Both the position numbers and the translations under genes were made by a program. DNA of 64,000 nucleotides from Eledone cirrhosa (Eukaryota), in contig OZ024740.1 in assembly GCA_964016885.1 (NCBI GenBank), forward strand, positions 201,810,001 through 201,874,000, written 5' to 3'. The first letter of the stretch is position 1. Each line of letters begins with the position of its first letter. The notes under the pieces are model-generated. The model was not told the origin of the DNA. It was given only the letters and a program-made list of their open reading frames with translations, and did no database searches. Shown here in pieces: positions 37,415-63,928 of this stretch.

Positions 37415-38457
37415 TATATATATACATATATACATACATATATACACATATACATATATATACACATATATACATATACATATATATATACACACATATA
37501 TATATATACACATACACACACATATATATACACATATATATACACATATATATATACATATATATATATACACATATATATATATACACATATATATATA
37601 TACACATATATATATATACACAGGTATATATACACATATATATATACACATATATATATAAACATATGTATATATATACATATATATATACACATATATA
37701 TATAAACATATGTATATATATACATATATATATACACATATATATATAAACATGTATATATATACATATATATATACACATATATATATACACATATATA
37801 TACACATATATATATACACATATATATATATATATACATATATATATATGTACACATATATATACATATATATATACACATATATATACACACATATATA
37901 TATATATATACATATATATATATGTACACATATATATACATATATATATACACATATATATACACATATATATACACATATATATACATATATATATACA
38001 TATATATACATATATATATACATATATATACATATATATATACACATATATATACACATATATATATATATATATACATATATATATATATATATACACA
38101 TATATATACACATATATATACACACACATATATATACATACACATATATATACATACACATATATATACATACACATATACACATATATATATACACATA
38201 TATATATACATACACATATATATACATACACATATATATACATACACATATATATACATACACATATATATATACATACACATATATATACATACACATA
38301 TATATACATACACATATATATACATACACATATATATATATACATACACATATATATATATACATATATATACATATATATATATACATACACACATATA
38401 TATATATACACATATATACACATATATATATATATACACATATATATATATATACAC
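37415..38457. repeat. About 1-kb degenerate (TA)n/(CA) microsatellite
   Basis: Directly visible. Confidence 0.97.
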
Positions 38458-39980
38458 TGGTGCAGCAGTATTCTCATAAATTGCTACAAAGGTAAAGGGG
38501 ATGCTTTGGAGAGGAGCAATTATAGGGGTATAAAACTGATAGATCAGGTTATGAAAGTGGCAGAAAGGATTTTAGCACAACTAATTAGAGAAAGGGTCAA
38601 ACTAGATGAGATGCAGTTTGGTTTTGTGCCTGGGAAGAGTACAACAGATGCCCTCTTCTTGGTGAGACAAATGCAAGAGAGGTTCTTAGAGAAGAATAAG
38701 CCACTATACTTAGCCTTTGTTGACCTAGAGAAGGCCTTTGATAGGGTACCCCGATCTGTCATCTGGTGGTCCCTAAGGAAGCTGGGTGTTGAGGAATGGC
38801 TTGTAAGGACAGTGCAAACTTTGTACAGAGGTACTCTCAGTAAAGTCGGTGTAGGAATGGAGTTTAGTGAGGAATTCCAGATACAAGTAGGAGTACATCA
38901 GGGTTCGGTCCTCAGCCCGCTCTTGTTCATTATAGTCCTCCAAGCCATAACAGAGGAGTTTAAGACTGGCTGTCCATGGGAACTTCTCTATGCTGACGAT
39001 CTGGCTCTTATGGCAGAATCAGTAGAGGAGCTAGAGAATAAATTCCGGCTATGGAAACAGCAGTTGGAAGCAAGAGGACTGAGAGTAAATCTAGCTAAGA
39101 AAAAAGTGTTGATGAGTAGAAAAGAGGACAAAACCCTGATTCCGTCAGGGAAATGGCCATGTTCGATATGCAGAAAAGGAACTGGCATAAATTCTATAAA
39201 ATGCACACAATGTAGGTCCTGGGTACACAAGAGATGTAGCGGGATAGCAGGCAAACTAACAGGTAGGGAGAAATATGTATGCAGTAGATGTACAGGGAAA
39301 TTAGACAGTAGAAGTCGCACTGATAGACACATTTTTCAAATGCGAGAGGGCGCTATAGAAGTGGTGGATAGCTTCCGGTACCTAGGAGATCAGATTAGCA
39401 TGGGAGGAGGGTGTTCCGAGGCCATAGTATCTAGAATAAGGACGGGTTGGAAGAAGTTTAGGGAGCTGCTTCCTCTGTTGACGAAGAAGGGTTTCTCCCT
39501 GCGTACGAAAGGCCGGTTGTATGATGCCTGTGTGAGGAGCGCGATGCTGCATGGTAGTGAGACATGGGCAGCAACTGCAGAGGATATGCGACGGCTGGAG
39601 AGAAATGAGGCAAGCATGCTCCGTTGGATGTGCAGTGTAAATGTGCGTGAACGACCCAGCATAAATGTGTTGAAAGGGAAACTGTGTCTGAGAGGGATAG
39701 AATGTAGTGTACGGGAGAGGAGACTGAGGTGGTATGGACATGTGATGCGCATGGAGGATGACCGATGGGTGAAGAAGTGCCAGGAAATGCCAGTTGAAGG
39801 AAGACGTGGTAGAGGTAGACCACGAAAAACATGGGCAGAGGTGGTGAGAACAGACCTCAGATCATTGAAGCTCACGGTGGAGATGACAAGGGACCGTGAC
39901 GAGTGGAGAGATGCTGTGCTGAATAAGACCCGTCCCACCCTTGCAAGCAGGGAAAAGCGGACGTAAAATGATGATGATGA
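38458..39980 (+). mobile_element. 5'-truncated RTE LINE family A (intact RT, PHD-type finger, C-terminus)
   Basis: ORF to 39966 with [34 protein letters not shown]; stop followed directly by (GAT)n then (TA)n. Confidence 0.95.
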
Positions 39981-40340
39981 TATATACATATATATATATA
40001 CATATATACATACATATATATATACATATATACATACATATATACTTATATATATATATACATATATACATACATATATACTTATATATATATATACATA
40101 TATATATACACATATATATACATATATATATACACATATATATACACATATATATAGATACATATACATATACATATACATATATATATACACATATATA
40201 TACATATATATATACACATATATACACATATATATAGATACATATACATATATATATATACATACATATACATATATACATATACATATACATATATACA
40301 TATATATATATATACATACATATACATATATATATATATA

Positions 40341-61300: not shown

Positions 61301-62195
61301 CGATCTATAGGTGATCAAGTGATTGTCTCGTTTTTTGAAGTTAGTGTTACAGATAGTTAAGTTATTTGCGTCGCAGAATTCCAGGATTCTGGAGCCTTCC
61401 TCATTTCTAGTACCGAACCCATAGCCTCCATGGATTCCGTCATAGCCGTCACAATGCTGTCCAACGTGACCCTTTAGGTCGCCTGCAATAACTATATAGT
61501 CACTGTCGAGCATCAGTGTCTCGTAGAATCTGTCTTTTATAGCACCGGGCAGTCCGGATTGTGGTGCGTACGCAGATATTACTGTCACCGTAGTTTTATT
61601 GAGGACAAGTCTTATTTTAATTATTCTGTCGTTCACTCTATTTACGTCTATTATCTTATCTGCCCACTTTTCTGCTACCATGATTCCTACCCCACCCAAC
61701 CCATTGTCATTTCCCACCCAGAAAAGCTTATAGCATCGTTCTTTACCCACGATGAATCTAGCCTCCCCTCCCCTCCACCTGGTCTCTTGAATACAACAAA
61801 CATCGACCTCCTTACGTTCAAGCATTTCTACAACCTCGTTAGAGCGACCCTTTAAGGTGCCTACATTCATGGTACCAACTCTGAAGTTTTGGATTGCGTT
61901 TGGAGGGTGGGAAGGGTGGGGCGCGGGGGGGGGGGGTTATGTTAGCCATCCTGGGCCGAAACAAGGCGGAGTGCTTGCATTCTCGTCCACGAGGTGAATT
62001 TGTCTTTATCTTTGGCATTGTCGCTGACCGTCCACATTTTTCTCTCTTCAACTCTCCAGAATTCCGTAGTCCATCCATCATATCGAAAAGCAACCAGTTA
62101 GGCGGTAGTATGGGCCTCTGACTTATGATTGGTCCACGTAATAATGGTGGTGCGTGGGGGAGGGTGGGAGGGATGATGTGTTGTTAGCGAGAATG
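58369..62195 (-). mobile_element. Near-full-length RTE LINE family B
   Basis: 5' region, single APE-RT ORF, 3'UTR with a 112-bp tandem duplication, (CAT)n tail; embedded in (TA)n. Confidence 0.96.
58868..61870 (-). CDS. RTE APE endonuclease-reverse transcriptase with internal PHD-type zinc finger (1000 aa)
   Basis: MNVGTL, CIQETRW, GVGI, SAYAPQ, GDLK, QVDYIL, SQHR; RT motifs [26 protein letters not shown]4HC3 cluster; RRLRWYGHV and GRPRKTW. Confidence 0.95.
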   Translation of the reverse strand: MNVGTLKGRSNEVVEMLERKEVDVCCIQETRWRGGEARFIVGKERCYKLFWVGNDNGLGGVGIMVAEKWADKIIDVNRVNDRIIKIRLVLNKTTVTVISAYAPQSGLPGAIKDRFYETLMLDSDYIVIAGDLKGHVGQHCDGYDGIHGGYGFGTRNEEGSRILEFCDANNLTICNTNFKKRDNHLITYRSGEHTSQVDYILTRRRDRVSVVNTKSLPHEEFTSQHRLIISDLIVRTRRTRQRKRTILRRKIWKLKDPIARNKFQSILLDAFDSKEEQLESYNIEEQWEFLRANLLTAADEVCGWSRPVGRRRVTWWWNSKVEESIKAKKQAWKAWRDGGSREDYQIARREARRQVYFARREAEERKFKHVLQREDQKREVFRIARQCVKENRDIVGEKCVLNDDGILAITDADKKVAWKCHYERLLNEENKWEKDSLPHIDPIEGPAVLVQGSTISKAIKDMKTGRAAGPSEIVAEMLKASGSVGHTMVTRIVNQVVQNGVVPKDWRSSIIVNCYKVKGDALDRSNYRGIKLIDQVMKVTEKVIAQLIRERIDLDEMQFGFVSGKSTTDALFIVRQLQEKYLAKSKPLYLAFVDLEKAFDRVPRSIIWWSLRKLGVDEWLVRAIQAMYKETVSKVRINNEYSEEFSVKVGVHQGSVLSPLLFIIALQAITEEFKTGCPWELLYADDLTLIAESITELEKKFQTWKHGLESKGLKINLAKTKVLVCRKENMAAVPSGKWPCSVCRKGVGRNSILCPKCKVWVHKRCSGITGKLTKNIDFTCGRCSGAISSSKCPRNTSSFNCAEGSIEIVDSFRYLGDKISSGGGCSESTVARVRTGWKKFRELIPLLAARGFSLKMKGRLYDACIRTAMLHGSETWALCAEDIRRLERNEACMLRWMCNSNIRERQSINELRKKLEIRGIRCCLLERRLRWYGHVMRMKDDSCITKCRAIKIDGSHGVGRPRKTWDELINSDLTRLHLSKTMSLDRDLWRYSVIEKTRLT

Positions 62196-63928
62196 TATAT
62201 GTGTATATATATATATATATATATATATACATATCTGTATATATATATATATATATATATATATATGTATATATATATATATATATATATATGTATATAT
62301 ATATATATATATATATGTATATATATATATATATATATATATATGTATATATATATATGTATATATATATATATATATACATATATATATGTATATATAT
62401 ATATATATATATATATATGTATATATATATATATGTATATATATATATATGTATATATATATATATATATATATATATACATATATATATGTATATATAT
62501 ATATATATATGTATATATATATATATATATATATATACATATATATATATATACATATATATATATATATATGTATATATATATATATATATATGTATAT
62601 ATATATATATATATATGTATATATATATATATATATATATATATGTATATATATATACATATATATATATATATACATATATATATATATATATATACAT
62701 ATATATATATATATATATATATATATATATACATATATATATATATATATATATATATATATATACATATATATATATATATGTATATATATATATATAC
62801 ATACATATATATATATGTATATATATATATATATATACATATATATATATATATATATATATATATGTATATATATATATATATATACATATATATATAT
62901 ATATATATATATGTATATATATATATATATATACATATATATATATATATATATATGTATATATATATATATATATACATATATATATATATATATATGT
63001 ATATATATATATATATATACATATATATATATATATATATATATATATATATATATATACATATATATATATATATATATGTATATATATATATATATAT
63101 ATATATATATATACATATCTGTATATATATGTATATATATACATATCTGTATATATATATATATATATACATATCTGTATATATATATATGTATATATAT
63201 ATATATATATATATATATATCTGTATATATATATATATATATATCTATATATATATATCTGTATATATATGTATATATATATATATATATATATCTATAT
63301 ATCTGTATATATATGTATATATATATATATATATATATCTGTATATATATGTATATATATATATATATATATCTGTATATATATGTGTATATATATATAT
63401 ATATATATATATATATATACACAGATATATATATATATATATATATATATACAGATATGTATATATATATATATATATATATATATATACAGATATGTAT
63501 ATATACACAGATATATATATATATATATATATATATACAGATATGTATATATATATATATATATATATATATATATATATATATATATATATATATATAT
63601 ATATATATATACAGATATGTATATATATATATATATATATATATATATATATATATACAGATATGTATATATATATATATATATATATATATATATGTAT
63701 ATATATATATATATATATATATACAGATATATATATATATATATATATATACAGATATGTATATATATATATATATATATATATATATATGTATATATAT
63801 ATATATATATATATATATATATACAGATATATATATATATATATATATACAGATATGTATATATATATATATATATATATATATATACAGATATGTATAT
63901 ATGTATATATATATATATATATATATAT
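62196..63928. repeat. About 1.7-kb (TA)n array with an internal inversion of variant units
   Basis: CATATCTG variants before about 63400, complementary CAGATATG after. Confidence 0.95.

Follow-up and report, generated by a model that had tools for sequence, protein, structure and literature searches.

Eledone cirrhosa carries two families of RTE-type long interspersed nuclear elements (LINEs), RTE-A and RTE-B, and a short interspersed nuclear element (SINE) family, SINE-B, whose young copies mostly lie in or beside (TA)n microsatellites. Here we describe these elements in a window of 64,000 nucleotides (nt) (assembly GCA_964016885.1, contig OZ024740.1, positions 201,810,001 to 201,874,000 of the forward strand; coordinates below count from its first letter) and in copies collected from the whole genome. 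AT|AT is probably the short insertion target of all three families, and most copies end up within or next to (TA)n that was already there, with no long array required, because three quarters of the genome's ATAT lies inside TA repeats. The pattern is genome-wide but soft, and is best read as the known RTE short-target mechanism in a new variant amplified by an unusually TA-rich genome, not as true repeat homing. It is apparently undescribed: a literature search whose reach left out most subscription papers and Repbase returned no report of a (TA)n-directed RTE.

The genome-wide set consists of 87 young copies (24 of RTE-A, 34 of RTE-B and 29 of SINE-B), found by similarity to queries of element sequence only and then extended into their flanks. 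A TA run was scored where an alternating run of at least 8 nt, i.e. (TA)≥4, lies no more than 20 nt from a junction. Such runs adjoin the 5' junction of 62 copies, the 3' junction of 47, both junctions of 38 and neither of 16, which gives a four-class table of 38/24/9/16 (both / 5' only / 3' only / neither). Random sites, drawn from 60 evenly spaced 10-kb stretches (600 kb; the random sample) of the 3.0-Gb assembly, show a run on the 5' side in 8.2%, on the 3' side in 8.3%, on both in 5.7% and on neither in 89%; (TA)≥4 runs make up 6.9% of the bases of this sample, and a run of at least 8 nt occurs in 8.5% of its random 20-nt flanks. SINE-A, with 17 copies from the random sample as control, has a TA run at two 5' junctions (Fisher p=6e-6 against the young copies). 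A first-pass annotation, made by a model from the letters of the window, had implied a genome-wide enrichment of this kind, and the comparison with random sites bears it out, with TA far beyond chance at young-copy junctions. Its statement that TA-rich DNA borders the young RTE copies on both sides stands for the six window copies that it named, 5' truncation points included, and describes only the 38 two-sided copies of the genome-wide set. The 24 RTE-type ends of the random sample, whose 5' calls are automatic and partly wrong, gave 10 runs at 5', 11 at 3', 7 at both and 10 at neither when taken alone, which is lower yet still enriched.

RTE-A rows were kept for 24 of 30 loci (left out were the window copy, two unextended loci, two with a 5' junction beyond range and one without a tail), RTE-B rows for 34 of 40 matches, and SINE-B and SINE-D rows for 29 of 30 loci each. 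Three candidate comparisons were rejected. A SINE-A set from a similarity search (0 of 29) had a query that contained flank; an AT-rich matched background was circular and consists mostly of TA arrays; and a Tx1/L1-like LINE was set aside as a control, its tail being (TATC)n and its 5' junctions not called.

Random sites are nevertheless the wrong background if the enzyme needs a short motif, and sites weighted by TAT or TATA were used alongside them. Of 23113 ATAT counted, 17241 (75%) lie inside runs of at least 8 nt. Runs at 5'/3'/both/neither are expected in 52/46/41/42% of TAT-weighted and 73/63/58/21% of TATA-weighted sites, and the observed 71/54/44/18% falls between the two. The cleanest test is the 3' side, since no uncertainty from duplication length or 5' filler enters there. 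Tails end in AT in 84 of the 87 copies and in GAT in 79. Measured from the tail's AT (n=84, the three copies without it being left out), the perfect-run length classes hold 28/17/17/12/10 copies, for which the AT|AT model predicts 26.3/18.7/14.7/10.9/13.4 (p=0.81). A T|AT model is not rejected (p=0.08), whereas AT alone (p=2e-10), ATAT|AT (p=0.016) and (AT)5 (p=9e-5) are. The next dinucleotide after the tail is AT in 56 of 87 copies, with 69% expected. Whole tracts at insertions have a median length of 43 nt, against 38 nt for TAT-weighted and 86 nt for TATA-weighted sites (p=7e-4), and tracts of at least 300 nt are under-used (13% against 23-30% expected). Long arrays attract no more insertions than their motif content predicts.

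Several results weigh against a plain four-letter target, and some of them would suit homing at the level of the array, in which the protein reads an alternating TA stretch by its shape, as a cruciform or through an upstream run about one helical turn off, microsatellites being true targets and some of them hot spots. Every single short motif compared with the four-class table fails to fit it (best p=0.001), and one-sided cases are in excess. Relative to their number of TAT sites, tracts of 20-50 nt receive too many insertions (30% against 11%) and isolated sites too few (13% against 29%). The CA-variant array of the window holds four insertions with 0.54 expected (P=0.002, uncorrected for its post-hoc choice). 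Stacking may exceed target availability: a second retroposon end was called beside the tract in 8 of 72 cases, as compared with 137 of 2627 (p=0.055), and some of the eight look false. Array homing would also fit the excess of 5'-only over 3'-only copies (24 against 9) and several cuts located where a short run ends on its downstream side (L038, L040, L045, L052), but window geometry alone predicts a 5' excess of about 2:1 or greater. The 5' junctions of long copies were placed by k-mer chaining and by eye, and this hand-setting also counts against the short-target account. With longer-run models failing on the 3' side, the longest tracts under-used and 16 of 87 copies without any run, array-level homing appears unlikely; the contrary results leave a small chance that an upstream run has an effect or that some places are hot spots.

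Readable mixed duplications were found at 12 insertions; they measure 5-13 nt and nearly all start with an AT common to the tail. The letters around the cut are A at -2 in 10/12, T at -1 in 10/12, A at +1 in 11/12 and T at +2 in 10/12. In addition, T stands at -11 in 11/12 duplications (5/5 of those without an upstream run), a single position in a small sample. Two points again limit the AT|AT assignment. The A-T at -2/-1 is partly circular because seven of the 12 duplications adjoin TA runs (away from TA runs it is seen in 3/5), and the AT at +1/+2 can be assigned neither to the tail nor to the target. A third comes from elsewhere: tail-target pairing is not general, because Bov-B tails rarely resemble their targets (PMC13295347).

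These junctions, together with published accounts (PMC6007223, PMC13295347), suggest ordinary target-primed reverse transcription, in which the APE endonuclease would nick ATAT at its T-A step and the freed strand, paired with the RNA tail through the latter's terminal AT, would prime synthesis. SINE-B would use the RTE protein through its RTE 3' end. The closest likeness is to the Tn-TA pairs (plant RTE/Au-SINE and Bov-B/Sauria SINE), which share an RTE architecture, a microsatellite tail and a SINE with a common 3' end. In plant RTEs Gln-229 and a short hairpin loop are typical and the first duplicated letter matches the tail repeat (PMC6007223); the Tn-TA signature has been extended to Bov-B (PMC13295347). 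The T-A step at the cut and a first duplicated letter matching the tail recur here, in a small and partly circular sample. In contrast to Tn-TA elements as described there, the tail is (GAT)n, the target AT|AT-like and a PHD finger follows the reverse transcriptase (RT); and of their T stretch lying about 10 nt upstream only the T at -11 is seen, in too few cases to establish a stretch.

The TA arrays are older than the insertions, because the polarity of the CA variant ignores element orientation and empty paralogues already hold TA; the first-pass annotation was right on this point. That polarity is constant across all five segments of the window array, around two forward and two reverse elements. 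At L071 the element lies within the (TA)4 of a 67-bp unit, as an empty paralogue shows, and L054 is flanked by the terminus of an older repeat, which has a TA run in 11 of 19 paralogues that lack the SINE. Empty sites hold a pre-existing (TA)n at these two loci; at L036, L164 and L185 paralogous or internal empty sites place the insertion at an AT without a TA array, and none of these sites is allelic. Allelic empty sites were sought twice among reads and none was obtained, the reads being swamped by repeat copies in one case and giving no cover of the junction in the other, which also tells against the short-target account.

A contrary view, that TA runs are created or lengthened at or after insertion through tail slippage and untemplated 5' filler, could draw on the additional TA-rich letters at the 5' junction of L083 relative to its paralogues, on the one to four additional letters common at 5' junctions, and on Lepidoptera, where RTE tails seed microsatellites (PMC2887409). 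We consider it very improbable. Besides the array polarity and the empty paralogues, the duplications fall far short of the variant arrays in length, and more diverged copies have no more TA: with rising divergence a run adjoins 76/118, 11/29 and 4/13 of the 5' junctions. Growth of arrays driven by insertion, which had been suggested as well, is unsupported because tracts at insertions are no longer than expected.

SINE-D, an unrelated family whose tail lacks GAT, has a TA run at 21/29 of its 5' and 16/29 of its 3' junctions (L252-L280 and the window copy). It is as TA-flanked as the young RTEs; therefore more than one machinery ends up in TA tracts, and the TA preference is not special to RTE-A, RTE-B and SINE-B. 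No partner LINE of SINE-D was found among the loci fetched here. This likeness would also be expected if (TA)n arrays broke spontaneously, as hairpins or cruciforms, and captured any retroposon RNA independently of an endonuclease. Such breakage could further account for the polarity flips inside two window arrays (53426-55026; 63115-63928), a pattern expected from fold-back or template switching, for palindromic arms at 6 of 338 isolated tracts of the random sample (two of them CA/GT repeats) and for tail-less SINE-B halves fused to (AT)n (window position 55027; L141). It is nonetheless hard to credit: SINE-A is unenriched, 26 of 27 RTE-A copies chosen by their 5' region retain the 3' tail, clean duplications occur at non-array sites, the APE catalytic columns are conserved, and long arrays, expected to be the most fragile, are under-used.

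The features of the window are listed in Table 1. Two arrays were reported by the first-pass annotation to hold several insertions, and their coordinates proved right: the CA-variant array (37415-43583) carries an RTE-B, an RTE-A, a SINE-B and an RTE-B 3' fragment, and the TCTG-variant array (55181-63928) carries two RTE-A copies. If AT|AT is the target, stacks would arise because a long array offers it hundreds of times and still offers it to the left and right of every insertion. The two RTE-A copies (55884-58152 and 58370-62195) were considered as a tandem duplication; this was rejected, as their mutual identity is 93.9% and each is closer to copies elsewhere. Exceptions to the TA setting are the RTE-A fragment at 16692-16889, which has no TA at its 5' junction, and two SINE-B copies that qualify the annotated placement of young SINE-B in (TA)n: 47908-48240 lies in (TAGA)n, and position 55025 is not a tailed junction because the SINE-B at 55027-55180 lacks its 3' half.

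Table 1. Retroelements and TA-rich arrays of the Eledone cirrhosa window
Feature	Position	Strand	Remarks
RTE-A-like subfamily copy	13649-14564	-	88% to fetched copies; TA both sides
SINE-D, second TA-associated SINE family	15995-16210	+	without GAT tail
SINE-B variant, RTE-A-like 3' end	16222-16659	+	in TA run behind SINE-D
RTE-A 3' fragment	16692-16889	-	tail-to-tail with SINE across (AT)16; no TA at 5' junction
CA-variant (TA)n array, segment 1	37415-38455	.	+ strand ATAC 83 vs GTAT 4
RTE-B, 5'-truncated: RT, PHD, C-terminus	38456-39981	+	stop codon immediately at (GAT)n tail; 99.4% to other copies
CA-variant array, segment 2	39982-40340	.	polarity unchanged; ATAC 37, GTAT 0
RTE-A, 5'-truncated	40341-42667	+	internally deleted near 42623, followed by 3' end with (GAT)n tail; 98.8% to another copy
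CA-variant array, segment 3	42668-42915	.	common to two tail-to-tail elements; ATAC 28, GTAT 0
SINE-B: tRNA-like head, RTE-A 3'UTR-like body, RTE-B 3' end, (GAT)n tail	42916-43258	-	Rfam tRNA match, shared ends
CA-variant array, segment 4	43259-43308	.	ATAC 5, GTAT 0
RTE-B 3' fragment with tail	43309-43458	-	
CA-variant array, segment 5	43459-43583	.	overlaps one arm of foldback repeat 43520-44260
SINE-B within (TAGA)n array, not (TA)n	47908-48240	-	AT-starting duplication of about 10 nt
(TA)n array	53426-55026	.	polarity flip near 54395 (ATTA then TAAT)
SINE-B 5' half, tail-less	55027-55180	-	fused to (AT)n at internal GATG
TCTG-variant array, segment 1	55181-55883	.	TCTG 19, CAGA 0
RTE-A, 5'-truncated, (GAT)n tail	55884-58152	-	
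TCTG-variant array, segment 2	58153-58369	.	
RTE-A truncated in 5'UTR	58370-62195	-	1022-aa open reading frame (stop to stop) at 58868-61936 with APE endonuclease, RT and PHD finger
TA array, segment 3	62196-63928	.	TCTG to CAGA flip near 63390

RTE-A and RTE-B share 65% protein identity, and each consists of one APE-RT-PHD frame and a (GAT)n tail. The domains Exo_endo_phos and RVT_1 lie in the single 1022-aa frame of the window (58868-61936), and frames of other copies reach 1111 aa stop to stop. In RTE-B the stop codon abuts the tail, while RTE-A has a 3' untranslated region (UTR) of about 480 nt, longer than typical of the RTE clade. Its 5'UTR consists of tandemly repeated units whose number varies (L002-L030, L151-L177), and no fixed 5' end was reached. 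HmRTE-e01 (30% identity over 92%) is among the few named matches. An RTE-SINE partnership, proposed by the first-pass annotation, is supported by the last 41 nt of SINE-B, which are 93% identical to the RTE-B 3' end; a further 104 nt are 82% identical to the RTE-A 3'UTR. The head matches the Rfam tRNA model at 43191-43248 (E=7e-4, 28.1 bits, slightly below the gathering score of 29), and SINE-B thus shows both features of an RTE-mobilised tRNA SINE, a head derived from tRNA together with a 3' end common to a LINE.

The APE catalytic columns are conserved over 108 aligned rows, with Lys in the window copy in place of the Asn-147 of the others. Gln precedes the catalytic His (Gln-229) in RTE-A, RTE-B and 101 of the 108 rows, the plant-type D229Q feature, and the hairpin loop of the RTE-A and RTE-B endonuclease is two residues shorter than in L1; both are as in plant RTEs (PMC6007223). 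These rows come from a broad lineage of relatives (P0001-P0120) that share this Gln, a state restricted to plant RTEs according to PMC6007223. Behind the RT, residues 762-805 of the window frame form a PHD finger, with profile matches to Pygopus and other PHD structures; a PHD-like pattern is present in 91 of 108 rows, and the finger could read chromatin. There is a slim chance that these RTEs, an animal lineage whose endonuclease is of the plant type and which carries a PHD finger, recognise tracts of alternating TA rather than four letters alone and, with a second and unrelated SINE system, turn the TA tails of older retroposons into reusable landing pads on which ordered stacks are built. 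If so, this would be the first RTE directed to microsatellites, and its landing pads a safe-harbour network on the scale of the genome.

Waldo, Kibi and Koshi are microsatellite-specific non-long-terminal-repeat elements, and targeting of the Waldo, Mino and Kibi kind had been proposed for the window. RTE-A and RTE-B resemble such LINEs in having most copies within or next to a single class of microsatellite, but the run is missing from one junction or both in 49 of the 87 copies and from both in 16, whereas those elements are described as sequence-specific. The proposal was not supported: RTE-A and RTE-B are not microsatellite-specific LINEs because two-sided flanking and a need for several units both failed, while a four-letter target reproduces the run lengths on the tail side. 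Dong in (TAA)n, Mino in (AC)n and Togen in (TG)n are further microsatellite-specific elements of other clades (PMC2887409, PMC3124438, PMC4640811), and RTEs are reported to prefer AT-rich sites without strict specificity (PMC1291365, PMC2887409). A short motif acts like microsatellite targeting here because the host is saturated with (TA)n; where 7% of the bases are (TA)n, a four-letter preference becomes targeting de facto. L1-CS of Cuscuta offers a parallel, as a short cleavage consensus repeated in the tandem array CUS-TR24 concentrates its insertions; however, it belongs to a plant L1 lineage, the satellite has a 389-bp unit, and Cuscuta RTEs are dispersed (PMC8091179). Likewise the Mu-like SaTar elements of guayule and rice stack next to one another in (TA)n without nesting, and a minority lie at ordinary sites, where they carry duplications, but they are DNA transposons, with microsatellite flanks in 62-95% of copies (PMC5907723). 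RTE-2_OV of Octopus vulgaris resembles RTE-B in layout, the comparison being by description only (PMC9115989).

About 5% of the 600-kb sample consists of copies with ≥85% identity, so that much of this load is steered into repeats. Its high copy number makes the system suitable for testing whether the tail repeat of an RTE selects the cut site, and which roles Gln-229 and the short loop play. It also carries a warning that flank enrichment needs a motif-weighted and not a random background.

Other observations concern single loci and neighbouring repeats. A young SINE-B (L047) has inserted into a (CAT)n array, whose repeat is complementary to the SINE's tail, and shows a duplication of 10 nt. 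Ultra-short copies of about 20-50 nt, with 3' stem and tail only, lie inside TA tracts (L136, L141, L119). TA tracts at the centres of palindromes with non-repeat arms were seen at L072, L068 and L179 and at L095, L116, L125 and L136. An older repeat family (L282-L300) ends in (CA)n/(TA)n, and this end hosts an RTE tail (L296) and SINE-A (L292, L299). In the window, SINE-A, with an (ATT)n tail and duplications beginning with TTAT, often stands in tandem (1255-1464, 18810-19238, 19722-19926, 22939-23132) and provides a second tail-target match. The repeat at 43520-44260, of foldback or miniature inverted-repeat transposable element type, has TA-rich arms and is abundant in the random sample; the RTE-B L085 sits in a paralogue of it. 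An L1/Tx1-like LINE with a (TATC)n tail (50430-52770, reverse strand; also L191-L220) adjoins a minisatellite (48299-50361) of 99 copies of a 21-bp unit with TAGA-like units.

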